From the NCBI GenBank assembly GCA_016214105.1, contig JACRPD010000025.1:1-32481 (forward strand): a stretch of 32,481 nucleotides of DNA, given 5' to 3'. The notes beneath the pieces are model-generated. The model was not told where the DNA came from, did not search any database, and saw only the letters and a program-made list of their open reading frames with translations. Shown piece by piece: positions 5,109 through 22,953 of this stretch; the stretch's first letter is position 1, and each line of letters opens with the position of its first letter. The translations under genes were made by a program, and so were the position numbers. This stretch comes from Candidatus Magasanikiibacteriota bacterium. Its GTDB lineage: Bacteria; Patescibacteriota; Patescibacteriia; Magasanikbacterales; UBA922.

Positions 5109-5864
5109 ATGATGGACACAAAAAAAGTCTATCTTTCTCTATTAAAAAAATATGGCCAACAGGGATGGTGGCCATTGTTCATAACTCAGGACACAAATAA
5201 CAAAACACATAGAGATTGGCGAGTGGAGAATGGTTTGACTTATGGTATTTCATATCTTGATTTGAAAAAGCATCAAACAGGATTTCGTGATCCGTGTTTT
5301 GAGATTGCCGTTGGCGCGATATTGACGCAGAATACGGCGTGGAAAAATGTGGCGGTGGCGATAATTAATTTATACAAAGCTAAAGCGCTGACACCGCAGA
5401 AATTATTAAAACTACCGACCGCGAAGTTACAAAAATTAATTAGACCGGCAGGATATTTTAGGCAGAAAACGAAGAAGTTGAAATTATTCGCGGAGTGGCT
5501 GATTAAAAATCATGATGGTGAAATCAAACAACTCGGTCGTAGTCCGTCGTCTGTGCTCCGTAGTCTATTATTGGCGAGGTGGGGGATTGGGAGAGAAACG
5601 GCGGATTCAATCATTCTTTACGCGTTAAATAAGCCGGTTTTTGTCATTGATGAATATACCCGCAGATTATGTCGACGGTATGGCGTTGAGTTTGAAGATT
5701 ATGATGAGTATAGACAATTTTTTGAAAAAGCGTTTTTAAAACAGAATTATTCAAAACAGAGATTGAGTAAAATTTATCAGGAGTATCATGGGTTGATTGT
5801 GAGGGCGGAAAAGATTTTCCCCTCTCCTCGTCAGAGGAGAGGGCGAAGGCCTTCGAGGCTCTGA
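5109..5864 (+). CDS. Endonuclease III-like HhH-GPD DNA glycosylase without an Fe-S cluster motif
   Basis: GAILTQNTAW, RPAGYFRQK, GIGRETADSI, VIDEY; C-terminus is supplied by a palindromic repeat. Confidence 0.9.
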   Translation: MMDTKKVYLSLLKKYGQQGWWPLFITQDTNNKTHRDWRVENGLTYGISYLDLKKHQTGFRDPCFEIAVGAILTQNTAWKNVAVAIINLYKAKALTPQKLLKLPTAKLQKLIRPAGYFRQKTKKLKLFAEWLIKNHDGEIKQLGRSPSSVLRSLLLARWGIGRETADSIILYALNKPVFVIDEYTRRLCRRYGVEFEDYDEYRQFFEKAFLKQNYSKQRLSKIYQEYHGLIVRAEKIFPSPRQRRGRRPSRL

Positions 5865-5953
5865 GGAGCCCTCAGGCTCTCGAAGAGGTGAGGTCTCGTC
5901 GCGGTTGGCGAGAGAGACCTCTCCCAACCCTCCTCTGTGCGCAGTGGAGGGAA
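5818..5953. repeat. Composite palindromic element (CCCTCTCC family doublet with a nested TTCG..CTCA hairpin)
   Basis: CCCTCTCCTC-GTCA-GAGGAGAGGG; GAGGTCTC/GAGACCTC; CCCTCCTCTG-TGCG-CAGTGGAGGG. Confidence 0.8.
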
Positions 5954-6395: not shown

Positions 6396-6410
6396 GTTTT
6401 AGAATTTGTG

Positions 6411-6439
6411 TTGACAATTATTTTTTTGAGTGGTATAGT
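6411..6439 (+). promoter_or_regulatory. sigma70 promoter for tRNA-Asn
   Basis: TTGACA-17bp-TATAGT with extended TG. Confidence 0.8.
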
Positions 6440-6496
6440 ATCCGCGGTTCTTAACAATTCATTCGTCGGTAGCTCAGCGGTAGAGCAGTTGGCTGT

Positions 6497-7046
6497 GAAT
6501 ACTTTATTTTGTTATAATTTTAGAGTTATGACAAAAGAAAAAAGAAAATACCGTGACCGCGCTTTATATCTCATTAAGGCTGTTAACAAAAGGCGAAAGA
6601 AATTACGGCAAATGGCAATTGAACATAAGGGCGGTAAATGCATACTTTGTGGTTACAAAAAATGCGCGCAAGCATTTGATTTTCATCATCTCAATGCTGC
6701 ACAAAAAGATTTTGGCATTTCCATGAATGGTTTGACCAGATCTTGGTTGAGGGTGGGGAAAGAATTAGACAAATGTGTAATGCTGTGCGCCAATTGTCAT
6801 CGTGAGGTTCATGTTGGTATAACGCAGCTTCCGGTTGTAAAACCGGTTGAAAATGGGGTGAATTCAGGGAAGCCTAAAATCGTAAGATGACGGTAATCCT
6901 GAGCCAAGTCCTAGAGGGAATTTGTTCTAGGAAAGGTGCAGAGACTAGTTGGTGAGTCCCAACAATAATCCAACATTAGCGCCCTATCTCCCTATTAATT
7001 GGGAGAATGAGATAGTCCACTCTATCATGAAAATGGTAGGCAAGTG
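6497..7046 (+). mobile_element. Group I intron (550 nt) at anticodon position 35/36
   Basis: Exon ends in U, intron ends in G; P AATTCAGGGAA (6861), Q AATCCTGAGC (6895), R GTGCAGAGACTA (6936), S GAGATAGTCC (7009); P3 GGGGTG/CGCCCT; GNRA-capped P2 and P9. Confidence 0.93.
6528..6890 (+). CDS. Intron-encoded HNH (putative homing) endonuclease, 120 aa
   Basis: Basic N-terminus, CILCG, FDFHH, LCANCHREVH; start reassigned to 6528 because the listed start overlaps the promoter and exon. Confidence 0.88.
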   Translation: MTKEKRKYRDRALYLIKAVNKRRKKLRQMAIEHKGGKCILCGYKKCAQAFDFHHLNAAQKDFGISMNGLTRSWLRVGKELDKCVMLCANCHREVHVGITQLPVVKPVENGVNSGKPKIVR

Positions 7047-8372: not shown

Positions 8373-10202
8373 GTGGAAATAAGAAACATCGCCATTATCG
8401 CTCACGTTGACCACGGCAAGACTCGCTTGACTGATGCTTTGATGCGTCAAACCGGCATGGTAACGGATGACAGCGTCAGCATGGATTCAAACGCTCTGGA
8501 ACAAGAGCGCGGAATTACGATTTATTCAAAAAATACTTCTATCTTCTATCCTTCGGCCATTCGGCAAGCTCATGGCTCAGGACAGGCATCAACAAAAATA
8601 AACATCGTTGACACGCCCGGCCATGCGGATTTTGGCTCGGAAGTTGAGCGGGTTTTGCGTTCCATTGATTCGGTGCTGTTAGTCGTTGACGCGCAAGAAG
8701 GGCCGATGCCGCAGACTAAATTTGTTTTGAAAAAATCTCTCGCGCTTGGCATCAAGCCGATCGTGGTGATTAATAAAATTGATAAGCCGGCCGCTCGGCC
8801 GGAATGGACGCACGAAAAAGTTTTGGAATTATTTATGGACTTGGGCGCGAATGACGAGCAGTTGGATTTTGCCACGGTTTACGCGATTGCCAAACAGGGG
8901 ATAGCGAAGCTTAATTTGCAAGATGAATCAAATGATTTGACGCCGTTATTAGAGACGATTTTAGCCAAAGTTCCGCCGGCAAAAGGAGATGTTTCATTGC
9001 CGTTTGCTTTTCAACCGTTTAATCTCGCTTATGATAATTATCTCGGCCGTTTAGGCATTGGCCGTGTGTATCAAGGCACATTGAAAGTGGCGGATAAAGT
9101 TTTTTTGAAAAAATCATCCGGTGAAATTATTCCCGGCAATATAACCAAATTGTTTACCTTTGAAGGACTTAATCGCAAAGAAGTGCCGGAAGTTATTGCC
9201 GGCGATATTGTAATGATCGCGGGTTTGCCGGATATTTATATCAGCGATACGGTTTGTATTGAAAAAGAGCAGTCTCTTTTGCCGGCGATTAAAGTTGACG
9301 AACCGACCATTTCATTGAATTTTTTAGTAAACAGCTCTCCATTTGCCGGAAAAGAAGGTAAATTTGTCACCAACCGGCAGATCAGAGAAAGACTGGAAAA
9401 AGAGTTAGAAGTGAATGTGGGTCTGAAAATTGACTTTTCAGCCGTGGATTATTACAAAGTTTTTGGCCGCGGCGAGCTTCATATCGCGATTCTTTTGGAA
9501 AATATGCGGCGCGAGGGTTTTGAAGTGCAAGTTTCCCAGCCGCAGGTTATTTTGAAAGAGATTGACGGTGTTACGAATGAGCCGTATGAAGAAGTGACGA
9601 TTGACAGTCCGCAGGAATCTTGCGGAATAATTATTGAAAAAATGGCCAAGCGCAAAGGCCAGATGAAAGAAATGTGGCCGGAACAAAACCACACTCGTTT
9701 GGTTTATGAAATTCCAACTCGCGGGCTTTTGGGTTATCGCAATGAATTTGTTACTGACACGCGCGGCGAGGGGATTTTGTGCAGTGAATTTGTCGGCTTT
9801 AAACCTCATGCAGGAGAAATTATTAAACGTTCGGTCGGCTCCATGATTTCCGGCGAAATCGGCACGGTTCTTTCTTATTCTTTGGCTAATTTGCAAGAGC
9901 GCGGGGTTTTATATGTTGGGCCGAATGTTGAAGTTTATGAGGGTCAAGTAATCGGCAACACTGCCAAGGGGCAGGATATGACGGTTAATCCGATCAAAGG
10001 CAAGCATCTTACCAATATGCGGTCTTCAAATTCTGATATTGCCATTCAGCTTATTCCGCCGATGGAATTATCGTTGGAACGCGGGTTGGAAGTGATGGCC
10101 GAAGACGAATATTTGGAAATCACACCAAAGAGTGTTCGTTTGCGAAAACAAATTTTAACCGAGACCGGCAGGGTGCAGAAGGGGAGGAAGAAGAGTGTGT
10201 AA
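8373..10202 (+). CDS. typA: Translational GTPase TypA/BipA
   Basis: IAHVDHGKT, ERGITI, DTPGHADF, NKID, GRGELH, EITPKSVRLRK; GTG start inferred. Confidence 0.97.
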   Translation: MEIRNIAIIAHVDHGKTRLTDALMRQTGMVTDDSVSMDSNALEQERGITIYSKNTSIFYPSAIRQAHGSGQASTKINIVDTPGHADFGSEVERVLRSIDSVLLVVDAQEGPMPQTKFVLKKSLALGIKPIVVINKIDKPAARPEWTHEKVLELFMDLGANDEQLDFATVYAIAKQGIAKLNLQDESNDLTPLLETILAKVPPAKGDVSLPFAFQPFNLAYDNYLGRLGIGRVYQGTLKVADKVFLKKSSGEIIPGNITKLFTFEGLNRKEVPEVIAGDIVMIAGLPDIYISDTVCIEKEQSLLPAIKVDEPTISLNFLVNSSPFAGKEGKFVTNRQIRERLEKELEVNVGLKIDFSAVDYYKVFGRGELHIAILLENMRREGFEVQVSQPQVILKEIDGVTNEPYEEVTIDSPQESCGIIIEKMAKRKGQMKEMWPEQNHTRLVYEIPTRGLLGYRNEFVTDTRGEGILCSEFVGFKPHAGEIIKRSVGSMISGEIGTVLSYSLANLQERGVLYVGPNVEVYEGQVIGNTAKGQDMTVNPIKGKHLTNMRSSNSDIAIQLIPPMELSLERGLEVMAEDEYLEITPKSVRLRKQILTETGRVQKGRKKSV

Positions 10203-10260
10203 GACGATTCATTGAACATGGAGAATGGGACATGGAAGAAACGAGCGGTGTTTGTTACAA

Positions 10261-10291
10261 AAAAACAATCGACTAAATGTCGGTTGTTTTT
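10261..10291. terminator. Bidirectional intrinsic terminator
   Basis: AAAAACAATCGAC-TAAAT-GTCGGTTGTTTTT. Confidence 0.75.
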
Positions 10292-10294
10292 ATT

Positions 10295-10365
10295 GATGAG
10301 GTTCGGTCGTTGCATTCTCTATCATTTTAAAATGCCAGAGAATGTGAAGGGACCGAACGCGCATC
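10295..10365. repeat. Long imperfect palindrome
   Basis: GTTCGGTC/GACCGAAC, CATTCTCT/AGAGAATG, CATTTT/AAAATG. Confidence 0.7.
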
Positions 10366-10380
10366 CCTCCGATGGATTAC

Positions 10381-10602
10381 CTATTTGGCAGGAGGACCGA
10401 GATTGCGAGAAAAGTACCAGTCGTCGAAGTCCGGACAGGTGAGTGGCCGGTGATTGGGCGGTTTGTTGGCGGGCTGATGATTATCATGAAACCGTAGAAC
10501 GCCGGGCAGTTCGCAACACACACCTTGTGCGTTGCAACTCGCGATGTCGCCTGTCTCATGACACTCGCAAGAACAGTTAATTGTTGAAGTTCTCGCGCAC
10601 AT
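10381..10602 (-). CDS. Small Cys-rich hypothetical protein (CxCxCH...CC)
   Basis: AGGAG 5 nt before ATG; fills an otherwise empty gap; 8 Cys in 73 aa. Confidence 0.55.
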   Translation of the reverse strand: MCARTSTINCSCECHETGDIASCNAQGVCCELPGVLRFHDNHQPANKPPNHRPLTCPDFDDWYFSRNLGPPAK

Positions 10603-10730
10603 TTTTTCTCCTTCTACGGCTGTTTGCGCCGATGGTAGTAGTTAATCATATGTAACGGTCATTGTCAATACAATATTTGACTTTGAGCTAATTTTGGCGC
10701 ATTATATATGCATTAAAAGCGCGTAAAATT

Positions 10731-11486
10731 ATGTCTCACAAAATTATCGTGATTAAAATCGGCACTAATGTTATTACCAATAATCAAGGTTTGCTGGAAG
10801 AATCTGTAATAGGTAAACTGGCAACGCAAGTCGCCGCGTTGAAGCGCAAACATTATGGCGTTATTTTGGTTACCTCCGGAGCAATGGGTGCCGGACGCTC
10901 GTTGGTCAAACCAAGTTTAAAATTAAATAAAGTGGAAACACGGCAAGTGTTGGCGGCAGTCGGGCAGATAAAATTGGCCGGTATTTATTTATCGCGTTTT
11001 CAAAAACTTGGTATTTCCTGCGCGCAGGTTTTGACTTGCAAGGAAGATTTTCGCGATAAAAAGCACTATCTCAACATGAAAAGCTGTTTAACGGCTTTGC
11101 TAAAAAGCGATTTAGTTCCAATCGTGAATGAGAATGATGTGGTGGCGGTGGAAGAATTGATGTTTACTGACAATGATGAATTGGCCGGTCAGATTGCCGC
11201 GATGGTGAAAGCCGATCGTTTAATAATTTTAACTACGGTTGACGGCGTTAAAGATAATCGAGGCCAAGTTATTAAAGAAATAAAAAAGCAAAGCGATTAT
11301 CAGCATTTTGTTACAACGGAAAAATCATCGTTCGGCCGCGGCGGCATGTCAGCCAAATGCGCCACGGCAATGCGGTCAGCGAAGCTTGGCATTAAGACGC
11401 ATATTATGAACGGTAAAATTCAGAATGGTATTTTAAAAGTTGTGGCAGGAGAAAAAATCGGCACTGTTTTTACTGTTACTCGTTAG
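10731..11486 (+). CDS. proB: Glutamate 5-kinase without PUA domain
   Basis: VIKIGT, VTSGA, AAVGQ, IVNEND, TDND, GRGGM. Confidence 0.95.
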   Translation: MSHKIIVIKIGTNVITNNQGLLEESVIGKLATQVAALKRKHYGVILVTSGAMGAGRSLVKPSLKLNKVETRQVLAAVGQIKLAGIYLSRFQKLGISCAQVLTCKEDFRDKKHYLNMKSCLTALLKSDLVPIVNENDVVAVEELMFTDNDELAGQIAAMVKADRLIILTTVDGVKDNRGQVIKEIKKQSDYQHFVTTEKSSFGRGGMSAKCATAMRSAKLGIKTHIMNGKIQNGILKVVAGEKIGTVFTVTR

Positions 11487-11515
11487 TTGATAGTTGTTAA
11501 TTGTTAGTTTTATCT

Positions 11516-12313
11516 ATGAAAAAAACTATTGGTATTATCGGCGCCGGCAATATGGGTGGCGCGATTTATCGGATTTTAAAACAAAGCCGTTTGGCGAAGC
11601 GAGTTTATATTTACGATAAGCACGCGAATAAAACTAACGCGTTGAAAGCGCGCGCGGATGTTCTGGGTTTGCAAGATTTATTAACACAGTCTGATATTAT
11701 AATTTTGGCCGTCAAACCCCAGTCATTTAAAGATTTAGCGGATGAGATTGGAGTAGAAATAAAAAATAAATTGATTGTTTCTGTCATGGCCGGCGTGTCA
11801 ACACAAACCATATCCGGCTTGTTAAAATCAAAAAAAATCATTCGCGCTATGCCTAATATGGCCGCCCGAATCGGACAAGGAGTGGTTGGTTGGTTCGCCA
11901 ACAAACCTGTTTTGAAATCTGAAAAAACTGATATCGCGCGGTTGTTGTCGGTTTTGGGCTTGGCTGTGGAAGTTAAAAAAGAGCCATTGTTGGATGTTGT
12001 GACAGCCGTGAGCGGTTCCGGTCCGGCTTATTTTTTCTATTTGTGCGGTTTATTGGAGGCACAAGCGGTTAGGTTAGGATTAGACAAAAAGAGCGCCAGG
12101 GTATTTGCCACGCAAACGTTTATTGGCAGCGCGACATTATTGAAAGTCAGTGAACAAGACGCCGGACAATTGTGTTTGTCCGTTATCTCCCGCAAAGGCA
12201 CGACTGCCGCGGCGATGGAGGTATTGAAAAAAAATGGCTTTGCCAAAATTTTTGAACGTGCGTTGTCGGCCGCTTTTAAACGCGCGCGGGAATTAAGCAA
12301 ACTGTATGAATAA
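11516..12313 (+). CDS. proC: Pyrroline-5-carboxylate reductase
   Basis: IGAGNMG, LAVKPQ, RAMPN, SGSGPAY, GTT. Confidence 0.95.
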
Positions 12314-13556
12314 AATCAACAGCCAATTAAGTAAAGCGAAATTATCAGCTGTGGCTTTAGGATTAATACCTGTTAGCAAAATTAATAAAGCATTACGCGC
12401 CGTAGCAGTAGCTATTTTGCGTGAGCAAAAAGTGATTTTGTCAGCTAACAAAAAAGATTTGCTTTCAATTAACAAAGTCGATCTCCGTTATGATCGCGCC
12501 TTATTGACACCGGCAAGAATAAGCGGAATTGCCGGCCAGTTGCGCGATGTGGCTAAATTGCCATCGCCATTAAATCAGATTTTGGAACAGCGGACAATCA
12601 AGAGCGGTTTGCGTTTATCAAAAATAACCGTGCCGCTTGGCGTGGTTGGCGTGATTTATGAATCTCGGCCGAATGTTACTGTAGAAGTTTTTTCGTTATT
12701 ATTCAAGTCCGGCAATGTTTGTGTTTTGAAAGGCGGAAAAGAAGTAAACCGCACCAATACTGCGTTTATAAAAGTTATTCAAAAAGTTTTGACAGCCAAT
12801 AAAATTAATTCCGGTTGCGTCGTTCTTCTACCAAGTAATCGGACTACTGTAAATCAGTTATTGAAATCCGATAAGTATATTGATGTTTTGATTCCGCGCG
12901 GAAGCGCTGGATTGATTAAGTACGCGCGCGAAAATTCCACAATACCGGTGATAGAAACCGGCGCCGGAGTAGTGCACACGTATTTTGATAAAAGCGGTAA
13001 CGCGAAAATCGGCGCGAGGATTATTGTTAATGCCAAAACGCGCCGGCCGAGCGTTTGTAATGCTTTGGATACATTAATTATTCATAAAGCGCGATTAAAA
13101 GATTTACCGGCATTAACAGCTCCGTTGGTAAAGTTTAAAGTTAAAATTTTTGCTGATGAATCAGCTTATAAGGCGTTGAAAGGCGATTACGATGAGGACT
13201 TGTTGAAACTGGCCAGTGCCAAAGATTTTGGCCGCGAGTTTTTATCTTTACAAATGTCCATCAAAACGGTCGTGTCAGCTGAAGAGGCGATAGATTTTAT
13301 TAATCGGCACAGTTCCAAACACAGCGAAGCGATTGTCGCGCGAGATAAAAAAATCACTGAAGAGTTTTTTAATCAAGTTGATGCCGCCGCCGTGTATAGC
13401 AACACATCCACCGCGTTCACTGACGGCGGACAGTTCGGATTGGGCGCGGAAATCGGCATTAGCACGCAAAAACTGCACGCTCGCGGGCCTCTAGGATTAA
13501 AAGAGTTGACGAGCTATAAATGGGTGGTGAGAGGGGATGGACAAGTGCGCTCTTGA
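12306..13556 (+). CDS. proA: Gamma-glutamyl phosphate reductase
   Basis: [36 protein letters not shown]. Confidence 0.97.
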
Positions 13557-13581
13557 CAAAATCTATTCTTTGTGCTATACT
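13553..13581 (+). promoter_or_regulatory. sigma70 promoter for csp
   Basis: TTGACA-17bp-TATACT with extended TG, overlapping the proA stop. Confidence 0.75.
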
Positions 13582-13650
13582 GTTGCCATATCAGTCAGAA
13601 ACTTAGTCGACCTCTACTTGGTATATTTAATTCATAAAAAATTTTTTCCT

Positions 13651-13851
13651 ATGAAAGGTGTTATCAAAACCGTGATTGCCGAGAAGAATTTTGGCTTTAT
13701 TACTCCGGAAGACGGAAGTAAAGACATCTTCTTTCATGCCACTTCTTTGAGTGGTGTTGAATTCTCTCAATTGAAGCAGGGTGATGCTGTCAACTTTGAC
13801 GTGGAGCAGTCTGAAAAAGGACCTCGCGCCGCCAATGTGACTCTTGCCTAA
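13651..13851 (+). CDS. csp: Cold-shock protein
   Basis: RNP1 KNFGFI, RNP2 IFFH, KGPRAANV. Confidence 0.95.
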   Translation: MKGVIKTVIAEKNFGFITPEDGSKDIFFHATSLSGVEFSQLKQGDAVNFDVEQSEKGPRAANVTLA

Positions 13852-13867
13852 GACTTTACAAACGAAC

Positions 13868-13899
13868 AGGCCGCCTAATTGGCGGTCTTTTGTTTTTTT
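13868..13899 (+). terminator. Intrinsic terminator
   Basis: AGGCCGCC-TAATT-GGCGGTCT followed by a T tract. Confidence 0.8.
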
Positions 13900-13951
13900 G
13901 ATTAATTTTGATTATTATTGTATATTATACTGGATATTTAAATTGTTTTCT

Positions 13952-14539
13952 ATGCCCGGCAAAGAAGTGGTGTTTGATATTGAGACCATCGGCGACATCA
14001 AAGATTTTAACAGCCAAAAAGTTACGGTAGTGTCTGTTTATTGTTATGAGAATGATTCTTATCGTTCTTTTGAGGAATCAGAGCTCGGCAGTCTGTGGCC
14101 GATTTTGGAAAAGGCCGAGCGGATTATCGGTTTCAACAGCGAGCATTTTGATTTGCCGATTTTGAATAAATATTACGCGGGAGATTTGTTGAAGTTTCCG
14201 CATCTGGATATTTTAAAAGTGGTGAAAGAAGTTACCGGTTCGCGCTTTAAGCTGAACGATTTAGCAAAGGCGACTTTGCAGATAGAAAAAAGCGCGGACG
14301 GTCTGCAGGCGCAGAAATGGTTTGCGGAAGGGCGGCTTGATGAAATAAAGAAATATTGCGAGCAAGACGTGAGAGTAACGAAAGAATTATATGAGTATGG
14401 ACGAAAGAATCGGATGCTGTATTACGAGACTTTAACCGGAGAATTGCGGCCTTTCGCCGTAAATTTTGATTTTCAACCGTTATTTAACGCGGCGGCCCAG
14501 TCAGGTGGGAAAAATATTAATTTAACTCTGCCGTTTTGA
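13952..14539 (+). CDS. RNase H-like DEDD exonuclease domain protein (YprB-like)
   Basis: FDIET, GFNSEHFD, YCEQDV. Confidence 0.85.
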   Translation: MPGKEVVFDIETIGDIKDFNSQKVTVVSVYCYENDSYRSFEESELGSLWPILEKAERIIGFNSEHFDLPILNKYYAGDLLKFPHLDILKVVKEVTGSRFKLNDLAKATLQIEKSADGLQAQKWFAEGRLDEIKKYCEQDVRVTKELYEYGRKNRMLYYETLTGELRPFAVNFDFQPLFNAAAQSGGKNINLTLPF

Positions 14540-14630
14540 CATCTTTTCAATTTTGTTATATCATACGAAGCAGGTATTAGTTCACCGAATAAAACATGGA
14601 AATGCGTGATCCATGTTCCATTTAACGAGT

Positions 14631-14914
14631 ATGTTGCAATTCACCAAGGAAACAGACTATGGTATCCAGCTATTGCTCGCTTTGGCTAAATTAAAAGACA
14701 GGCAGGTTTTGAGTTTGCGGAAGTTTTCCGCCGCAAATAGAAAGAGGCGGTGGAAGCGATTGATGGGGAATGCGCGGTATCAAACTGTCTGCGTCCGGAG
14801 CCGGACTGTCGTTGTGTCAAAGAAAATAATTGCGGCGTAAAAAATATTTTTTGCAAAGTAAACAAACAACTTGTTAGCTATCTGCAGAGTATAAAATTGA
14901 GCGATTGCATTTAA
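14631..14914 (+). pseudogene. Rrf2/IscR family regulator with internal deletion and frameshift near 14735
   Basis: N-terminal part MLQFTKETDYGIQLL...; C-terminal part in another frame from 14741, KEAVEAIDGECAVSNCL...CRC...C...LSDCI*; recognition helix and GGY wing are absent. Confidence 0.8.
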
Positions 14915-14916
14915 TT

Positions 14917-16200
14917 ATGTTTCCACGCAAGCCAATTAAAAAGCGTTTAGTATATCTTGATCACGCCGCGACTACGCCGGTTGATTTGGCGGTCAAGAAA
15001 GCAATGGATCCGTATTTTTGTGAACATTACGCGAATCCGTCCGGTTTATACGCATCAAGCCGCGAAGTCAACTACGCCTTGAATGACGCGCGCCGAAAAG
15101 TGGCGGGAATTTTACAGGCTTTGCCGGATAATATTATTTTTACCGGCGGCGGTAGCGAGTCGGACAATTTGGCGATATTCGGCGCAGCTCATAAGCAGAG
15201 TAAGCATGGTAAGCCCTTTGGCTCCGCTCAGGGTAAACACATTATCACGACAAAAATTGAACACCATGCCGTTCTTTTGCCGATGGAACAGTTACAGAAA
15301 GAAGGTTTTGAAGTAACTTTTTTGGCTGTTGATGAACAGGGGCGTGTTACCGCTGAACAAATTAAAAAAGCCTTGCGTCCGGACACAATTTTAATTTCAA
15401 TAATGTATGCTAATAATGAAATCGGCACAATTGAACCAATCGCCGAGATCGGACGAGAAATTTTAAAATGGCGCAAGCAAAATAATACTGTCTATCCGTT
15501 TTTTCATACTGACGCTTGCCAAGCGGCCGGCGCGCTGGATTTAAATGTGGAGAAGTTGCACGTGGATTTGATGACTTTGAACGGCAGTAAAATTTATGGT
15601 CCTAAAGGCGTGGGGATTTTATTTAAGCGGCGCGGAGTGGAAATCAAACCGTTGGTTCTTGGCGGTGGCCAGGAAATGCGTTTGCGTTCCGGAACGGAAA
15701 ATGTGCCTGGAATTGTCGGTACCGCGAAGGCGCTGGATAACGCGCAAAAGAATAGTAAAAAAGAAAATTTACGGTTGCGTAAATTGCGCGATTATTTTTG
15801 GCAGGAGATTCAAAATAAAATTAAAAAAGTTCGGCTGAACGGTCCGGAGTTGGGCGATGAAACGGTACGTTTGCCCAACAATCTTAATGTGTCTATTTTG
15901 GATGTGGAAGGCGAGGCTTTGCTGTTATATTTAGACGAATATGGGATAATGTGTTCAACCGGTTCAGCCTGCACTTCGCAATCGCTGGAACCATCGCATG
16001 TTTTAACCGCTTGCGGTCTGCCCTATGAATACGCGCACGGCAGTTTGCGATTTACTTTGGGAAAATCAACAATAAAACAAGACATAGATTATGTGATGAA
16101 ATATTTGCCGGGAATAGTGGAGAGGTTGCGGGAGGTTTCGCCGGTAAATTTGACTTGCGATCCAAAAAAAAATTTACATCCGAAGTATCACCAACGATAA
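14917..16200 (+). CDS. iscS: Cysteine desulfurase
   Basis: YLDHAATT, NNEIG, HTDACQ, KIYGPKG, GGGQE, RSGTEN, STGSACTS. Confidence 0.96.
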   Translation: MFPRKPIKKRLVYLDHAATTPVDLAVKKAMDPYFCEHYANPSGLYASSREVNYALNDARRKVAGILQALPDNIIFTGGGSESDNLAIFGAAHKQSKHGKPFGSAQGKHIITTKIEHHAVLLPMEQLQKEGFEVTFLAVDEQGRVTAEQIKKALRPDTILISIMYANNEIGTIEPIAEIGREILKWRKQNNTVYPFFHTDACQAAGALDLNVEKLHVDLMTLNGSKIYGPKGVGILFKRRGVEIKPLVLGGGQEMRLRSGTENVPGIVGTAKALDNAQKNSKKENLRLRKLRDYFWQEIQNKIKKVRLNGPELGDETVRLPNNLNVSILDVEGEALLLYLDEYGIMCSTGSACTSQSLEPSHVLTACGLPYEYAHGSLRFTLGKSTIKQDIDYVMKYLPGIVERLREVSPVNLTCDPKKNLHPKYHQR

Positions 16201-16201
16201 T

Positions 16202-16672
16202 ATGTCAAACAACGAAGCAAAAATCAGAGACCGGGAGGGTAAAGCATGGCTTTACACTGACGTGGTTAAAGAACATTTTTTTAATCCTAAAAATTTATTA
16301 AAACACGGGGAAGAGAAAGACTATAAGGCCGACGCGTTAGGGCGGGTTGGCTCGCCGGCTTGCGGGGATGAAATGGTTTTGTGGTTGAAAATTGATAAGA
16401 AAAGTGAGAGAATAACTGAATGCAAGTGGCAGACTTTCGGGTGCGCCAGCGCGATTGCTTCCACTTCAATGTTGAGTGTGATGGTCTTGGAGAATGGCGG
16501 GATGACGATTGAGGAAGCGTTAAAAATCAGGCCGCAGGATATTTTAGCGCGATTGGGCGGTTTGCCGGCGCGGAAAATTCACTGTTCCGTGCTTGGCGAT
16601 CAGGCATTACGATCAGCTATAAACGATTGGTTTCAAAAGACGGGGCAACCTAAGCGCACTGTTACTGTTTAA
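16202..16672 (+). CDS. iscU: IscU/NifU N-terminal Fe-S scaffold
   Basis: SPACGD, FGCASAIAS, KIHCS. Confidence 0.92.
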   Translation: MSNNEAKIRDREGKAWLYTDVVKEHFFNPKNLLKHGEEKDYKADALGRVGSPACGDEMVLWLKIDKKSERITECKWQTFGCASAIASTSMLSVMVLENGGMTIEEALKIRPQDILARLGGLPARKIHCSVLGDQALRSAINDWFQKTGQPKRTVTV

Positions 16673-16688
16673 TACATTAAAAAATATT

Positions 16689-16874
16689 ATGAAAATCAAC
16701 ATTGACCAGGAGAAATGCATCGGTTGCGGAACGTGTGTGGCCATAGCGCCAAACACTTTTCGCATGAACGATGAAACGAACAAGGCTGAAGTTATCAATC
16801 CGCCTGGCGACAGCGAAGAAATTATCAAAATGGGCGTGGAAAGTTGTCCAACCGCGGCAATAGTCATTGAATAG
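16689..16874 (+). CDS. Mono-cluster ferredoxin
   Basis: CIGCGTC...CP. Confidence 0.92.
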   Translation: MKINIDQEKCIGCGTCVAIAPNTFRMNDETNKAEVINPPGDSEEIIKMGVESCPTAAIVIE

Positions 16875-16877
16875 TAT

Positions 16878-17543
16878 ATGGGTAACCTGTTTGTAGTTGC
16901 TACCCCCATCGGCAATTTAGGCGACATAACTCTGCGCGCGCTTGAAACACTTAAAAGCGTTGATTTTATTTTATGCGAAGACACCAGACATACGCAAAAA
17001 TTATTGAATCATTTTGAAATTAAAACACCGACGATTAGTTATCATCAACATAGTGATGAAAAGAAAGTTAGAGAGATTAAAGAGCTGCTAAGCGCGGGTA
17101 AGAATTTGTCGCTGGTTACTGATGCCGGGACTCCTGGAATTTCCGACCCAGGCAGTTGGCTCGTTCGCCAATTAACAATAGAACAATTTAACAATTTAAC
17201 AATAATACCAATACCAGGTCCATCAGCCCTAACCGCCGCGTTATCTCTGTGTGGTTTTGATACAAGTAAGTTTCTATTCCTTGGCTTCCCGCCGCACAAA
17301 GGTAGAGCGAAGTTTTTTCAAGAAATCGCGGAAGCGAAACACACGGTCGCGTTTTATGAATCATCGCACCGAATTAAAAAATGTTTGACCGAACTGTCTG
17401 GTGTTTTAAATAAACATCAACAAATTTGCGTTGGTCGCGAATTAACCAAACAATTTGAAAGCATTTACCGCGGGACGATTGAAGAGATTTTAGAAATGAA
17501 TGTGCCGGAGAAAGGGGAGTTTGTTGTTATCGTTAATAAATAA
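16878..17543 (+). CDS. rsmI: 16S rRNA C1402 2'-O-methyltransferase
   Basis: ATPIGNL, CEDTR, DAGTPGISDPG, RELTK, KGEFV. Confidence 0.96.
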   Translation: MGNLFVVATPIGNLGDITLRALETLKSVDFILCEDTRHTQKLLNHFEIKTPTISYHQHSDEKKVREIKELLSAGKNLSLVTDAGTPGISDPGSWLVRQLTIEQFNNLTIIPIPGPSALTAALSLCGFDTSKFLFLGFPPHKGRAKFFQEIAEAKHTVAFYESSHRIKKCLTELSGVLNKHQQICVGRELTKQFESIYRGTIEEILEMNVPEKGEFVVIVNK

Positions 17544-17547
17544 AAAT

Positions 17548-18207
17548 ATGGGCAATCCAGAATCTTTCAATCCATTGAAAACGGAAGAATCTTACGGTTT
17601 GATTCCAAAGTTGGGTTCAGCGGAAATAAATGGAAGACCGATGGAGTCGCCGAATGTTGCCGGTAATTTAGAAGCTGTGGATGAGCTGGCAACTATTCTT
17701 GAATCCATTGAGGATAGAACGCACAGACAAAGATTGGAGGCGATATTTAAAGGATTGATAAACGGAAGATCTGATGAGGAAATATTAGATGAGCTTGAGA
17801 GGGTAGAAGGGAAAAGAATTAACCGACCAAGGCTGCGTTCCGTCTATAGGTATTGTAGAAAAAAATATTTACGTGGTAAATTTCCAAACATACCGGCCAC
17901 TTTGGGAGAACTAAGAGAGTTTGTAAGAGGTAAAGCCACAGAGAGATCAGAGGAAAAGAGAAAGAAGCATTTGGCGCAGCTGTCAGATGAGTTGATAAGA
18001 TTAGCCGGCGAAAAACAAACCGAACAAATCAAACTGGAACAATTAATCATTGAGTATTTGCTTAGCGGAGGATCAAGAGAGTATCTGGCTAATGCGGGAT
18101 TACGCACGGATGAGGAAATATTAAAAGTAAAAGAGGCGGTACTAAATCGTTTAGGAATACCATTAGGTTTTAAAAAACAGAGAATCGTTGGTCTCTCCAG
18201 AATCTAA
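17548..18207 (+). CDS. Hypothetical charged, probably helical protein
   Basis: 219-aa ORF between rsmI and metG; no motif recognised. Confidence 0.7.
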   Translation: MGNPESFNPLKTEESYGLIPKLGSAEINGRPMESPNVAGNLEAVDELATILESIEDRTHRQRLEAIFKGLINGRSDEEILDELERVEGKRINRPRLRSVYRYCRKKYLRGKFPNIPATLGELREFVRGKATERSEEKRKKHLAQLSDELIRLAGEKQTEQIKLEQLIIEYLLSGGSREYLANAGLRTDEEILKVKEAVLNRLGIPLGFKKQRIVGLSRI

Positions 18208-18261
18208 TCCCTCATGACAGCTTGTACTGCCCGAGCAAGCGCTACAGATTCGAGAGAGACC
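18190..18261. repeat. Palindromic element overlapping the ORF end
   Basis: GGTCTCTC..GAATCT / AGATTC..GAGAGACC with inner GCTTG/CAAGC. Confidence 0.65.
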
Positions 18262-18303
18262 AAATATATTAAACAAAAAAATCTTGATTTAGTCAATTAA
18301 ATT

Positions 18304-19833
18304 ATGCCAAAAACTTTTTACCTCACCACCACGCTGCCTTATGTGAACGCCGATCCGCACATTGGTTTTGCTCTGGAAATCATCCAGGCTGACGCGCTGG
18401 CGCGTTACCACCGATTGTTAGGCGAAGAAGTGGTGTTTAATACCGGCACTGACGAGCATGGCTTAAAAATTTATCGCAAAGCGTTAGAGAATCATGAGGA
18501 TCCGCAAACGTATTGCGATCGATATGCCGCGCGGTTTGACGCGTTAAAACAGGCGTTGAATTTAAGTTATACCAATTTTATCCGCACCACAGACGATCAT
18601 CACACCAAAGCGACGCAAGAGTTTTGGCTGAGGTGTTTTAAGAACGGGGATATTTATAAAAAAAATTATAAAATAAAATACTGCGTTGGTTGCGAGCTGG
18701 AAAAGACTGATTCAGAGTTGGTTGATGATAAATGTCCGGTGCATCCAAATTTAAAAATAGAATTAATTGAAGAAGAAAATTATTTTTTTAAATTTTCTAA
18801 ATATAAAAAACCATTATTAAAGTTTTACAAAAAAAATCCGAGTTTTGTCGTCCCAGGCAATCGTCTGCAAGAAATTAAAAATTTTGTAGAAAGGGGATTG
18901 GAGGACTTTAGTATTTCCCGCTTAAAATCCAAAATGCCTTGGGGGATTCAGGTTCCAAATGATGAAGACCACGTGATGTATGTTTGGTTTGACGCGCTTA
19001 TTAATTATATATCAACACTCGGTTGGCCCAATGATGAGAAAAAATTTAAAAACTTTTGGCCGGGCGTGCAGGTAGCTGGGAAAGATAATCTGCGACAACA
19101 AAGCGCGATGTGGCAAGCGATGCTGATGTCTGCTGATCTGCCAGCTTCAAAACAAATTTTTATCCACGGTTTTATCACTTCCGACGGGCAAAAAATGAGC
19201 AAATCGCTTGGTAATGTGGTTGATCCGTTTGAATTGGTGGAAAAATATGGTTCGGCAAGCTCACCACGAGTTGGCACGGACGCGGTTCGTTATTTTTTAC
19301 TTGGCGCTTTGCCGCCGGATGATGATGGCGATTTTAGTATTGAGCGTTTTGAGAAATTCTACACCGCGCATTTGGTAAATGGCGTGGGCAATCTGACTTC
19401 GCGGATTTTGACAATGATAGAAAAGTACTGCGACAGCCGCGTGCCTGACGGAAAGGCGGAGGACATAGGACACAAGACCGAGGAATTTTGGAAAAGATTT
19501 AATGCGTATTTCAGCGAGTACAAGTTTGATGAGATTGTTAAATTGGTAAATGGTTTTGTGGCAGAACTTGATACTTTAATTTCCGAAGAAAAGCCATGGG
19601 AGAAAATAAAGAACGGCGTGAATATTCAACCGATGTTGTATCAATTGGCGGAAAGCTTGCGTCAAATCGCTTTGGCGCTTCTGCCAATAATTCCCGAAAC
19701 CGCGGAGAATATTTTGTCACAGCTGGGGATTGACGCGGATAAATTGGATATATTAGAGAAAGAGATAGAACGAGGCAAATTAAAATCCGGCGCGAAAATA
19801 AGAAAGAGCGGGATTTTGTTTCCACGGCTATGA
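18304..19833 (+). CDS. metG: Methionyl-tRNA synthetase (short form)
   Basis: PYVN..HIG, GTDEHG, YVWFDAL, KMSKS. Confidence 0.97.
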   Translation: MPKTFYLTTTLPYVNADPHIGFALEIIQADALARYHRLLGEEVVFNTGTDEHGLKIYRKALENHEDPQTYCDRYAARFDALKQALNLSYTNFIRTTDDHHTKATQEFWLRCFKNGDIYKKNYKIKYCVGCELEKTDSELVDDKCPVHPNLKIELIEEENYFFKFSKYKKPLLKFYKKNPSFVVPGNRLQEIKNFVERGLEDFSISRLKSKMPWGIQVPNDEDHVMYVWFDALINYISTLGWPNDEKKFKNFWPGVQVAGKDNLRQQSAMWQAMLMSADLPASKQIFIHGFITSDGQKMSKSLGNVVDPFELVEKYGSASSPRVGTDAVRYFLLGALPPDDDGDFSIERFEKFYTAHLVNGVGNLTSRILTMIEKYCDSRVPDGKAEDIGHKTEEFWKRFNAYFSEYKFDEIVKLVNGFVAELDTLISEEKPWEKIKNGVNIQPMLYQLAESLRQIALALLPIIPETAENILSQLGIDADKLDILEKEIERGKLKSGAKIRKSGILFPRL

Positions 19834-20957
19834 TAAAGAAAAAAGAAAAGGTGTTAGTGGCAATGAGTGGCGGCGTGGATTCTTCCGTGGCCGCTGCTTT
19901 ATTATTAAAGCAAGGTTATGATGTGACGGGAATGTTTGCTGTAAATTATAATGCTAATATACAAATGAATGCTAATGCTACTAATGGTGATTGCTGGTTG
20001 CCGGATTATAGAGATGCGGTGCGGGTGGCGGCGAAGCTGAGGATTAAATTGATTAAATTGGATTTTCAAAAAGAGTATAAAAAACTAGTTTTGGATTACA
20101 TGTTTCGCGAATACCGCGTCGGCCGGACACCCAATCCGGATGTGACGTGCAATAAATTTGTGAAGTTTGGGGTGTGGTTGCGAGCGGCAAAGCGGTTGGG
20201 ATATGCAAAATTAGCTACGGGGCATTATGCGAAATTGAGTCAAAAGTCTATAAAGTCAAAAGTCTATAAAGTCAGATTGCTACAGGCGAAAGATAATAAT
20301 AAAGACCAGACTTACTTCTTGCACCAATTGAATAAAAAACAATTACAGCATGTTTTGTTTCCACTCGGCAATTATTTGAAGTCGGAAGTCCGAAAGCTGG
20401 CGCGAAAATTTGATTTGTCCACAGCTGATAAGGAAGAAAGCATGGGGATTTGTTTTGTCGGCGAAGTGCCGATGAGAGAATTCTTGCAAGCATCGATTGC
20501 ACAGAAGAAAGGAAAGACTTCACTGAGCGATGGCACGATTGTGGGCGAACATGACGGATTGGCGTTTTATACGATTGGTCAACGCGAACGATTGGTAATT
20601 ATGAATTATGAGTTAGGAATTAAGCGCGACGAGCCATTGTTTGTCGTGAATAAAGATGTAAAAAATAATCGCTTAATTGTCGGCTACGAAGATGACGCTC
20701 TGTTATACAAAAAAGAGATTAAAGTCGGTAACGTTAGTTGGATTAGTGGACATTCTCCCAAGTTTCCGTTAAAATGTATGGTGAGGTTGAGGCATAGACA
20801 ACCGCTACAGGAGTGTCATTGCGAGGAGGAGCTCGCGCGACTACGAAGCAATCTCTTGGTACGATTCGCGAAACCACAACGGGCGGTAACGCCCGGACAG
20901 TTCGCGGTATTTTATAAAAATAATGAATGTTTAGGCGGCGGTGAAATTTTATTATGA
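19830..20957 (+). CDS. mnmA: tRNA 2-thiouridylase
   Basis: SGGVDS, TPNPD..CN, TGHYA, KDQTYFL, SMGICF, TPGQ. Confidence 0.96.
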   Translation: MIKKKEKVLVAMSGGVDSSVAAALLLKQGYDVTGMFAVNYNANIQMNANATNGDCWLPDYRDAVRVAAKLRIKLIKLDFQKEYKKLVLDYMFREYRVGRTPNPDVTCNKFVKFGVWLRAAKRLGYAKLATGHYAKLSQKSIKSKVYKVRLLQAKDNNKDQTYFLHQLNKKQLQHVLFPLGNYLKSEVRKLARKFDLSTADKEESMGICFVGEVPMREFLQASIAQKKGKTSLSDGTIVGEHDGLAFYTIGQRERLVIMNYELGIKRDEPLFVVNKDVKNNRLIVGYEDDALLYKKEIKVGNVSWISGHSPKFPLKCMVRLRHRQPLQECHCEEELARLRSNLLVRFAKPQRAVTPGQFAVFYKNNECLGGGEILL

Positions 20958-22891
20958 TAATTTCAAACGAACTTCGCCAAAAATATCTAGACTTTTTCAA
21001 AAGCAAAGCCCACGCGATTATTCCGAGCGCTTCTTTGATTCCGGAAAATGATCCAACAACTTTATTTACCAGCGCGGGGATGCAGCCGATGATTCCGCAT
21101 CTTTTGGGCGAACCGCACGCGCAAGGGACGAGAATCGTTAATTCGCAAAAATGTTTTCGCACGCAAGATATTGACGAGGTGGGGGATAATCGGCATACAA
21201 CTTTTTTTGAAATGCTCGGCAACTGGTCTTTGGGCGATTATTTTAAAAAAGAACAAATTGAATGGATGTGGGAGTTTCTTATCAAGAAATTAAATTTTGA
21301 TCCGAATAAAATTTTTATCACTTGTTTTAGAGGAGATGTAAAAAACAATATCCCTCGCGATGAAGAAGCGGCAAAAATTTGGCAGGAATTATTCAAATCA
21401 GTTGGCGTCAAAGCCGAGATTGTTAATAACTCAGAAAAAGATGGAATGAAAGGCGGACGGATTTTTTATTATGCAGCTGATAAAAACTGGTGGAGTCGCG
21501 CTGGTGTGCCGGAAAAAATGCCGGAGGGCGAGCCGGGCGGGCCGGACAGCGAAATGTTTTTTGATTTTAGCCCTTCGACAAGCTCATGGCAAGCGCACCA
21601 CGATGAACAAAAATACGGTAAACACTGTCATGTAAATTGCGACTGCGGTCGTTTTGTGGAGATCGGAAACAATGTTTTCATGCAATATGTAAAAACCAAA
21701 AACGGCTTTAATGAATTAAAACAAAAAAATATAGATTTTGGCGGCGGGCTGGAGCGGATGACCGCGGCTTTGAATAATAATCCGGATATTTTCAGAATTG
21801 ATTTATTTTCCGGCGCGTTGAAAAAAATTGAAGAATTATCCGGCAAAACATACGGCGCGGATGAAAAAGAAACTTTCGCGTTCAGAGTTATTTTAGATCA
21901 TCTGCGCGCGGCCGTTTTTTTAATCGCTGACGGCGCTGTGCCGTCCAGAAAAGATCAAGGATATTTTACTCGCCGTTTGATTCGCAGAGCGGTGCGGTTT
22001 GCCGCTAATCTCGGCATCAGTCAGCTTTTTACGCCTGTTATCGCCAAAGAATATATCGAAACCTACAAAAATGTGTATGCGGATTTATTTAGCCAACAAA
22101 ATTTAATTTTATCTGAATTGGAAAAAGAAGAAAGTAAATTTAGAGAAACGCTTGAGCGAGGAATTATGAATTATGAATTAGGAATTAAGGGCTTGGCGGC
22201 CAAAGTGATTCCCGGGGATGTTGCGTTTGATCTTTATCAGTCATACGGTTTTCCGATTGAGATGACGATTGAGTTGGCCAAAGAGAAGGGAATAGATGTT
22301 GACGTGGCGGGTTTTAACGAAGAGATGAAAAAACATCAGGAGGTTTCCCGCATAGGCGCGGAACAAAAATTCAAAGGCGGATTGGCCGGGACAGGGGAGA
22401 TGGAGACAAAATATCACACGGCCACGCATTTGCTTTTGGCGGCGTTGAATCGCGTGTTGGACGGCTCTTCGGCCATTCGGCAAGCTCATGGTGGTGAGTC
22501 GTATCGAACTGCAAGCTCAGAGCGGGGCGGGATTTTTCAAAAGGGGAGTAATATTACAGTGGAAAGATTACGATTTGATTTTAATTATCCGGAGAAATTA
22601 ACTGTGGAACAAATTAAATCCGTGGAAGATTTGGTTAATGAAAAAATAAAAGAAGATAAAAAAGTTGAGATGTTGGAGATGCCGAGAGATGAAGCATTAA
22701 AAACAGTTAAAGTTTCTTTTGACCCGAGCAAGTATCCGGAGATTGTTAAAGTATATAAAATCGGAGATTTTAGTATGGAACTTTGCGGCGGTCCGCATGT
22801 TGAACACACCGGAGCTCTGGGTCAGTTTAAGATCGTTAAAGAAGAAGCCAGCAGCGCGGGAGTAAGGAGAATAAAGGCCATTCTTCTCTAA
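20954..22891 (+). CDS. alaS: Alanyl-tRNA synthetase (short, no C-Ala domain)
   Basis: FTSAGMQP, FFEMLGNWS, GLER, HTATH, ELCGGPH, GVRRI. Confidence 0.97.
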   Translation: MIISNELRQKYLDFFKSKAHAIIPSASLIPENDPTTLFTSAGMQPMIPHLLGEPHAQGTRIVNSQKCFRTQDIDEVGDNRHTTFFEMLGNWSLGDYFKKEQIEWMWEFLIKKLNFDPNKIFITCFRGDVKNNIPRDEEAAKIWQELFKSVGVKAEIVNNSEKDGMKGGRIFYYAADKNWWSRAGVPEKMPEGEPGGPDSEMFFDFSPSTSSWQAHHDEQKYGKHCHVNCDCGRFVEIGNNVFMQYVKTKNGFNELKQKNIDFGGGLERMTAALNNNPDIFRIDLFSGALKKIEELSGKTYGADEKETFAFRVILDHLRAAVFLIADGAVPSRKDQGYFTRRLIRRAVRFAANLGISQLFTPVIAKEYIETYKNVYADLFSQQNLILSELEKEESKFRETLERGIMNYELGIKGLAAKVIPGDVAFDLYQSYGFPIEMTIELAKEKGIDVDVAGFNEEMKKHQEVSRIGAEQKFKGGLAGTGEMETKYHTATHLLLAALNRVLDGSSAIRQAHGGESYRTASSERGGIFQKGSNITVERLRFDFNYPEKLTVEQIKSVEDLVNEKIKEDKKVEMLEMPRDEALKTVKVSFDPSKYPEIVKVYKIGDFSMELCGGPHVEHTGALGQFKIVKEEASSAGVRRIKAILL

Positions 22892-22953
22892 ACCTCCCCC
22901 TCGTAGGGCTTCGTCGTGAGCGCCCAGCCGAACGGGGAGGCGGGGAGGGGGTC
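22892..22953. repeat. CCTCCCC-family palindrome with nested TGAG..CGAA hairpin
   Basis: CCTCCCCC...GGGGAGG-CGGGGAGGGGGT; CGTGAG-CGCCCAGC-CGAACG at 22915-22934. Confidence 0.7.

Follow-up and report, generated by a model that had tools for sequence, protein, structure and literature searches.

This study asks how one short, hairpin-forming DNA sequence came to be read within four unrelated, essential genes of a groundwater bacterium. The stretch analysed (the window; 32,481 nucleotides (nt), GenBank assembly GCA_016214105.1, contig JACRPD010000025.1) comes from a Candidatus Magasanikiibacteriota bacterium, and within typA, iscS, metG and alaS it carries copies of a palindromic motif, TTCG...CTCA, with complementary flanks. 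A prediction made from the sequence of this window (the original prediction) had taken the copies for in-frame insertions of an active mini-element mobilised in trans. Comparison with related genomes makes it probable that they belong to a miniature insertional repeat that was copied recently, and in frame, into essential genes. The part of the prediction that concerned recent insertion at the DNA level, into predicted loops, was borne out by empty orthologous sites, by the use of three reading frames and by turnover with nesting within one genus. Mobilisation by a transposase was not, as the one RAYT-like gene is flanked by other repeats and such genes are unrelated to the presence of the element across 201 genomes (see below).

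The window is contig C20 of an 840-kb genome in 84 contigs (91% complete, 44% G+C; hereafter G000), and the sequencing runs that contain this genome are groundwater metagenomes only. All large open reading frames (ORFs) of the window lie on the plus strand. Two congeners, G001 and G002, were used for close comparison; G002 is about 80% identical to G000 in DNA and was compared whole with the G000 copy sites. Orthologous loci of TypA, IscS, MetG and AlaS were taken from 40 relatives and the sites aligned, 28–29 relatives being informative per site. Pattern scans covered 41 relatives and then an even class sample of 201 genomes. The copies in the four genes are as follows.

8550–8591, plus strand: insertion in typA, 42 nt in place of 6 nt (AAA GGC/GAC) of relatives, encoding PSAIRQAHGSGQAS.
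15214–15237, plus strand: insertion in iscS, 24 nt (CCCTTTGGCTCCGCTCAGGGTAAA), encoding PFGSAQGK.
19248–19271, plus strand: insertion in metG, 24 nt (TGG-TTCGGCAAGCTCA-CCA-CGAGT), encoding (G)SASSPRVG, with a TGG direct repeat.
21571–21594, plus strand: first copy in alaS (CCCTTCGACAAGCTCATGGCAAGC), encoding PSTSSWQA; a variable loop is replaced, for a net gain of 3 amino acids.
22461–22523, plus strand: second insertion in alaS, 63 nt encoding 21 amino acids (SSAIRQAHGGESYRTASSERG), a cluster of three cores.

The motif was present at each position given for it in these genes by the original prediction, and the translations agreed with the peptides that had been quoted. The typA insertion (net gain 36 nt) is missing from 26 of 28 relatives, which read FYK(G/D)TKINIVD, and it is double: an inner unit, CCATTCGGCAAGCTCATGG (8557–8575), sits within the loop of an outer unit, CCTTCGG...CTCAGGACAGG. 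TypA of G002 (94% amino acid identity) has a single 27-nt unit there, encoding PSASSGQVP, against 42 nt in G000. At the metG site the gap is exactly 24 nt (8 amino acids) in 28 of 29 relatives, G002 among them. The iscS site corresponds to a 24-nt gap in G002 and to an 8-residue gap in 20 of 29 relatives, with the motif in none of the 29; the boundary of this insertion is ambiguous by 5 nt owing to a GGTAA direct repeat. For iscS and metG the comparison with G002 agreed with the predicted inserts of 24 nt between GGTAA and TGG repeats. The second alaS insertion is absent from all 29 relatives that span the site, including G002. Its outer core, GCTC-TTCGG...CAAGCTCA-GAGC, encloses a sense unit identical to the inner typA unit and an antisense TTCGATACGACTCA core, and 25 nt are identical between typA (8551–8575) and alaS (22467–22491).

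Alignment with orthologues, which had been proposed as a check, thus gave empty sites for typA, iscS, metG and the second alaS copy. The first alaS copy occupies a loop that varies in all relatives and is not a clean insertion, and on this copy the original prediction needs correction. The typA and second alaS copies are insertions, as claimed, but nested or multi-unit clusters rather than single units. G024, which is less closely related, carries a double unit of another kind in typA and 24 nt of diverged sequence where metG has its insert. This could mean that two permissive loops were each entered on two occasions, or that several lineages precisely lost an old insertion. Contigs were examined from three DNA runs of one groundwater study; those of the probable source run span the inserts in metG and alaS, and this does not count as independent support. 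No insert-free variant occurred among the contigs listed from these three runs, and the depth peaks above the motif derive from contigs of other organisms.

In G000 the unit reads YCC-TTCGRC-loop-GCTCA-GGR followed by a 3' tail, with a modal length of 24 nt; most units are of this length, at times 21 nt or nested multiples. A profile search of the genome gave a broader consensus, CCC-TTCGRC-(loop)-GCTCA-GGG-YARR, in which the loops vary. A loose expression for the core had 103 matches genome-wide, of which we kept the 31 with three complementary bases on both sides as family copies in the 0.84-Mb genome, while 13 of the loose matches belong to a separate, longer repeat (family B, described below). 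The original prediction had implied that the motif would be commoner than in shuffled controls, and this was seen: TTCGGCAAGCTCA with up to two mismatches matched six times in the window against 0.99 expected, and six was reached in 0 of 100 shuffles. Four of the six are the typA, metG and both alaS copies; the remaining two (minus strand, two mismatches, at 734 and 14710) look like chance. Across the genome TTCGGCAAGCTCA has 9 exact, 21 one-mismatch and 52 two-mismatch matches. A stricter pattern, CCTTCGRC-N2-8-GCTCAGG, matched 24 times in G000, its reversed control not once across the 41 relatives, and in the class sample the totals were 602 for the pattern and 7 for the control. The closing stem co-varies, as had been claimed of the flanks (CCC/GGG 16, TCC/GGA 8, TCC/GGG 2, CCC/GGA 1; Fisher p = 1.7e-4), and further pairs were CCA/TGG (3), TGG/CCA (1) and TCG/CGA (1). 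Rfam returned no family over the motif in the window, only two tRNAs and one group I intron.

New copies have arisen at formerly empty sites between the genomes of this one genus. Twenty-seven G000 sites could be aligned with G002: 18 are empty in that genome, 6 hold the copy in both, typA has one unit in G002 as against two in G000, and the other 2 gave no clear picture. Gaps opposite G000 copies comprised seven clean ones of exactly 24 nt, two of 21 nt and one of 63 nt, and five G001 copies match exact 24-nt gaps in G000 or G002. One locus exists in three states: it is empty in G002, carries one unit in G000 (G000:C11) and in G001 (G001:C2) has a second unit within the loop of the first. At another (L326), G000 is empty, G001 has a single unit and G002 is nested. 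Empty, single and nested states at one locus in three congeners imply that the repeat also enters its own loop. In other phyla, left and right arms are serially stacked (L134, L216) and 24-nt tandem arrays occur (L161, L220, L227). A terminator hairpin common to the three congeners (G000:C59:8342; G001:C12; L334) bears the core at its tip in G000 and G001 and other sequence in G002; the core has opposite orientations in G000 and G001, a small inversion inside an otherwise conserved stem. Together with the nested loci, the typA and alaS clusters and the stacked arms, this terminator shows that loops are favoured entry points, whether they belong to a copy already in place or to a different hairpin.

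The share of copies that fall in genes is close to what the coding fraction would give. Twenty-nine of the 31 lie inside ORFs of at least 100 amino acids, and long ORFs cover 0.90 of the genome, so genes are not avoided. The intergenic copies cap terminator-like hairpins followed by T-runs. Within ORFs the sense orientation prevails, with 26 copies to 3 in antisense, where stop codons alone would lead one to expect 60% sense (p = 4.7e-4); the corresponding sense:antisense counts were 18:4 in G001, 5:1 in G002 and 9:0 at nine unrelated loci of the candidate phyla radiation (CPR). Sense copies are distributed 12, 8 and 6 over the three frames and yield peptides of the PSASSGQ-, LRQAQG- and PFG.AQG- types, so the repeat is a DNA element and not a peptide motif. 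We attribute the sense bias to selection on the encoded peptide; a strand-specific insertion mechanism may be another source. As for an account by replication strand, GC skew is confounded with the coding strand, and around four of the sense copies the skew is slightly negative.

The original prediction had proposed checking whether the coding inserts are multiples of three and map to surface loops. All are multiples of three, and they fall in predicted loops of TypA, IscS, MetG and AlaS. AlphaFold2 models were built with 29-sequence alignments. The AlaS model has a mean predicted local distance difference test (pLDDT) score of 82, falling below 50 in three segments, two of which hold the inserts (209–214 and 506–524) and one of which holds none (468–479); insert 2 is placed between a helix (482–503) and a strand (529–534). 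The MetG model has a mean pLDDT of 92, with the insert (317–324) in a loop joining helices 308–315 and 321–334 and a local block mean of 77. In these models the inserts look like tolerated surface loops. As a separate observation on AlaS, the G002 match to this protein is split (G002:C13:5510-7363, L123), its N-terminal part being 53% and its C-terminal part 79% identical to G000 AlaS. In its N-terminal catalytic core it belongs to the other AlaS subtype (WLEIWNDVFMQY), found in several relatives, which suggests a domain replacement.

The repeat family is not peculiar to this genome, its core being common to many phyla. Among the 41 relatives the stricter pattern occurred in 11 (24, 26, 7, 11, 12, 14 and 9 copies, and a few) and was not found in 30, and in the class sample it occurred in 106 of 201 genomes, with 0 to 82 copies each. 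An exact 21-mer, CCCTTCGRCAAGCTCAGGGCA, was present at no fewer than 120 loci in species-representative genomes of at least 15 phyla, where our own arithmetic gives about 0.5 by chance. The matches listed (80 titles) include Acidobacteriota, Chloroflexota, several CPR groups, Pseudomonadota, Cyanobacteriota (a Nostoc isolate, L176), Planctomycetota, Verrucomicrobiota, Bacteroidota, Actinomycetota, Chlamydiota, Gemmatimonadota and others. In those genomes the core mostly caps a longer, lineage-specific stem. In two high-copy CPR genomes, G064 (82 copies) and G131 (58 copies), inverted doublets (-,+) are frequent, the partners being some 43 nt from each other and enclosed in composite repeats of roughly 120 nt, every core capping its own stem; G000 copies are mostly single.

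The absence of a mobiliser gene from the window, which had been noted from the sequence, agreed with a Pfam search of its 20 ORFs, in which no mobile-type transposase or nuclease was found. Across genomes we considered Y1/RAYT (REP-associated tyrosine transposase) genes, TnpB and small GIY-YIG nucleases, and identified no mobiliser gene by these tests. Intact Y1 genes (E<1e-30) were present in 6 of 11 element-bearing relatives versus 0 of 30 others. In the class sample this co-occurrence was gone (element in 12 of 22 Y1-positive versus 93 of 178 Y1-negative genomes), and no Y1 match was found in G064 or G131; a RAYT/IS200 transposase was rejected as the mobiliser. TnpB had no match in the genome, which is 91% complete. 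Single-domain GIY-YIG genes occur in 138 of the 201 class genomes, up to 9 per genome, and are associated with the element (85 of 105 versus 52 of 95; odds ratio 3.5, rho 0.37, not corrected for phylogeny). Of six such loci whose flanks were read, a tRNA-like sequence adjoins five and the core adjoins two; those of G000:C59 and G064:C19 bear hairpins of their own, GATTCCGC...GCGGAATC, and seven genomes with at least 5 copies of the element have no small GIY-YIG gene. This is statistical association without physical linkage, so we keep GIY-YIG only as a weak lead. As to the motif-flanked RAYT or nuclease gene that the original prediction had suggested looking for, the RAYT-like gene of G000 is flanked by GTAG-type REPs, and the core adjoins only the two GIY-YIG loci just counted.

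Two observations on these genes stand apart from the repeat. The genome has a single intact IS200/RAYT-like Y1 transposase gene (G000:C49:8159-8503; L126 1489-1938), which has inverted hairpins of the GTAGTCCCGTAGGGAC type, and CCAGGGGC...GCCCCTGG hairpins, to either side of it; this is a classical RAYT–REP arrangement with GTAG-type REPs, separate from the TTCG...CTCA family. The GIY-YIG genes at G000:C59:8517-8774 (L125), L346, L348 and L351 adjoin tRNA genes, or else duplicated fragments of tRNAs (tRNA-Glu in G000), and to judge from their sequence context these genes look like tRNA-invading Ssn-type or homing-type nucleases.

The reading that we prefer is a mobile repeat. Its unit has a varying but complementary closing stem of 3–4 bp, two arms that are conserved (TTCGRC and GCTCA), an apical loop that is not, and, at the 3' end, a short tail, YARR. 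Having no stop codon in any sense frame, a unit of 24 nt would leave its host gene readable wherever it landed. Selection would then retain copies in tolerant surface loops, mostly in the sense direction, where they would encode small polar peptides (PSASSGQ, LRQAQGK, PFG.AQGK). With lower confidence, copying may proceed through a single-stranded hairpin recognised by a trans-acting enzyme, which is neither a Y1/RAYT transposase nor clearly one of the small GIY-YIG nucleases. A bolder version, in which a pan-bacterial, 'frame-neutral' 24-nt hairpin homes to hairpin loops, its own included, by way of some single-strand DNA enzyme as yet unrecognised, or by the replication and repair of the host alone, is speculative and we hold it unlikely.

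Several points weigh against a mobile repeat. No fixed-length target duplication was found across the seven clean 24-nt events, and at typA, at the first alaS copy and in the nested loops native bases were replaced, where simple insertion would have left them; such base-replacing events fit templated repair as well as transposition. Because copies share descent, the covariation of the stem overstates their independence, and shared descent enters the orientation counts as well. Thermodynamically the hairpins are weak: their DNA fold z-scores, -1.8 to +1.2, are not significant. Genes were taken as ORFs of at least 100 amino acids, with no gene finder, and insert boundaries are uncertain by a few bases because the comparator, G002, has only about 80% DNA identity. 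Read-through of the inserts is a prediction from the DNA, and the mobiliser tests described above named no gene.

Some of these points are shared with an alternative that needs no transposase, in which template switching, or microhomology-guided short-patch illegitimate recombination, acts at stalled forks or on imported single-stranded DNA. Hairpins would be both stall sites and abundant donors, and selection would retain only the frame-preserving events. Short-patch double illegitimate recombination (SPDIR) is a precedent for such transposase-free copying. The seven clean 24-nt events are flanked by direct repeats of 5, 3, 2, 5, 2, 0 and 0 nt (random mean 0.82), and two of the seven reach at least 5 nt against P = 0.015 per event, so that microhomology is modestly enriched and its length varies as this alternative supposes. 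Targets frequently resemble the 3' end of the unit (GGTAAA, TGGCA), which also speaks for it, as do the replaced native bases, the negative search for a mobiliser and the in-frame reading of an unrelated short repeat (IMNYELGIK in alaS and mnmA, below). The inversion inside the L334 stem is a classic outcome of template switching at a hairpin. What this alternative leaves unexplained is the identical 21-nt core in at least 15 phyla, the constancy of the 24-nt unit despite differing internal loop lengths and the range from 0 to 82 copies among similar genomes, and we regard it as a possibility to be taken seriously, though a doubtful one.

The identical core in many phyla, the co-varying stem, the strong sense bias and the intergenic copies at the tips of terminator-like hairpins before T-runs could also be claimed for a selected functional motif rather than selfish DNA: a site for protein binding or for uptake, the loop of a terminator, or a hairpin in mRNA tuning translation or decay. 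Such a motif should hardly be missing from 30 of the 41 close relatives and from 95 of the 201 genomes in the class sample, nor differ between congeners. The host genes are unrelated and the positions within them non-homologous, the hairpins are weak, and about 30 copies per genome fall far under the numbers familiar for uptake sequences. This makes a functional motif improbable. Ancestral or convergent low-complexity coding sequence, with the peptides native to their proteins, might be thought of where the alaS loop varies in all relatives (first copy) or where a few copies are common to G000 and G002. It is scarcely credible for the family, as the orthologous sites are empty in nearly all relatives, one DNA gives unrelated peptides in three frames and the same DNA is found between genes too.

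Among known systems the family is closest in behaviour to the Rickettsia palindromic elements (RPEs) and in size to the small dispersed repeats (SDRs) reported from Nostoc. RPEs are palindromic, have no transposase of their own and lie in frame in unrelated housekeeping genes, where they are read through and are compatible with the fold (Ogata et al., 2000, 2002; PMC10969869). They have about 100–150 bp, a family-specific conserved peptide in one frame, and a range confined to Rickettsia and relatives (PMC10969869). As far as that account goes, the repeat described here is like RPEs in being palindromic and in frame within housekeeping genes, with read-through predicted, and unlike them in its 24-nt unit, its 12/8/6 use of frames, its nesting in its own loop and its core in many phyla.

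Elhai and co-workers are said to have described, in 2008, Nostocaceae SDRs of 21–27 nt that behave like mobile DNA, have no known mobiliser and occur within other repeats and genes; the description reportedly concerned heterocystous cyanobacteria. We know of no identical core across phyla, and of no systematic in-frame insertion in essential genes, in what has been described of SDRs. The likeness to the Nostoc SDRs (dispersed units of 21–27 nt, insertion polymorphism, no associated transposase) is one of behaviour only. Unlike classical MITEs (miniature transposable elements with inverted repeats), the repeat has direct repeats of 0–5 nt and no fixed-length target-site duplication. DNA uptake sequences (DUS/USS) number hundreds to thousands of copies per genome, in both orientations, are species-specific and arise by point mutation; the present family, unlike them, has 24–31 copies that arise as 24-nt insertions, with a core common to many phyla.

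Repetitive extragenic palindromes (REPs) are extragenic hairpins of about 20 nt with a 5' GTAG-type tetranucleotide, and flank a RAYT gene (PMC3116915). The family resembles REPs in its short hairpins of about 20 nt and in being hairpin DNA open to targeting, and the inverted doublets of the high-copy genomes G064 and G131 may be a likeness to the paired forms (REPINs); it is unlike them in that 29 of 31 copies are intragenic, the consensus lacks GTAG and Y1 presence is unassociated (12/22 versus 93/178). Ssn GIY-YIG nucleases are described as tiny single-domain proteins that cut 20–50-nt NTS/SRM hairpin repeats spread over many phyla (PMC11893778). Hairpin repeats in many phyla and small GIY-YIG genes common in the class (138 of 201, the odds ratio of 3.5 being uncorrected for phylogeny) may be points of likeness to that system; judged by eye against the published SRM pattern, the TTCG...CTCA family lacks the GTC-led start. 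A literature search, with supplementary files outside its scope, returned no paper that prints the core or its complement and none that links coding palindromes to CPR bacteria.

To our knowledge, coding palindromes are textbook matter for Rickettsia only. The present case is RPE-like behaviour in a groundwater bacterium of ultra-small size, and the unit is six times smaller; owing to its length and its codon content, the frame is preserved by every sense insertion. The genus shows fast turnover, 18 of 27 sites being empty in the congener. An identical core in at least 15 phyla without a recognisable mobiliser raises the question of how very short DNA spreads. In practice, inserts of this kind make proteins look more divergent than they are, give rise to spurious ORFs and hamper phylogeny from alignments of CPR markers such as the aminoacyl-tRNA synthetases and TypA. 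If the pan-bacterial, frame-neutral version were true, the repeat would be the smallest known self-propagating DNA unit and a general source of new surface loops in the essential proteins of streamlined bacteria.

Three further copies had been predicted at 21–37, 5849–5877 and 22915–22934. These proved to be TTCG...CTCA modules within other, larger composite repeats, the first three features below; the fourth is a separate short family.

22897–22950, minus strand: family B, an intergenic composite repeat downstream of alaS (the predicted copy at 22915–22934), CCCCG-TTCGGCTG(A/G)GCGCTCA-CGACGAAGCCCTACGAGGGG.
1–104, strand not assigned: long palindromic repeat GTCATTGCGAGG...CCTCGCAATGAC with an antisense TTCGCTTCGCTCA module (the predicted copy at 21–37), a different family; CCTCGCAATGAC occurs 15 times in the genome.
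5820–5920, strand not assigned: GC-rich composite intergenic repeats downstream of the HhH-GPD gene, with CC-TTCGAGGCTCTGAGGAGCCCTCA-GG (the predicted copy at 5849–5877), a loose relative of the family only.
22162–22192, plus strand: separate short repeat family AATTATGAATTATGAATTAGGAATTAAG, encoding IMNYELGIK in frame in alaS; a second copy lies at 20597–20627 in mnmA.

Family B has about 13 near-identical copies in the genome, with a CG/CG stem and flanks unlike those of the TTCG...CTCA family. The IMNYELGIK repeat reads AATTATGAATTATGA(A/G)TTAGGAATTAAG, and its 12-mers occur up to 29 times in the genome. A related segment, NYELRI, is present at the same AlaS position in G039. The predicted translation of the IMNYELGIK repeat shows that other repeats may also be read in frame here. 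The gene in G000:C38 that holds the copy at minus-strand offset 8251 has, about 130 nt upstream of that copy, a second lineage-specific in-frame segment, PSTPSGRSGRASS, comprising 9 residues absent in G002 and probably coming from another repeat family.

Pfam names assigned in the window include a prepilin peptidase, LigA, a penicillin-binding protein (PBP), the HhH-GPD glycosylase, ProB/ProC/ProA, IscU, an RsmI-like methylase, MnmA and others. The group I intron (RF00028) is full length (6767–7039, plus strand; 80.6 bits, E 3.6e-19 in Rfam) and lies between an ORF without a Pfam match (6408–6890) and a zinc-finger ORF; ARAGORN called no tRNA at 6767–7039. An A/C-rich repeat, CA(A/T)AAC(A/T)CA..ACACAA(T/A)TAACAAAACACA, occurs at 1654–1683 in ligA and at 5180–5209 in the HhH-GPD ORF, and the adenylation domain of LigA begins only at residue 70.

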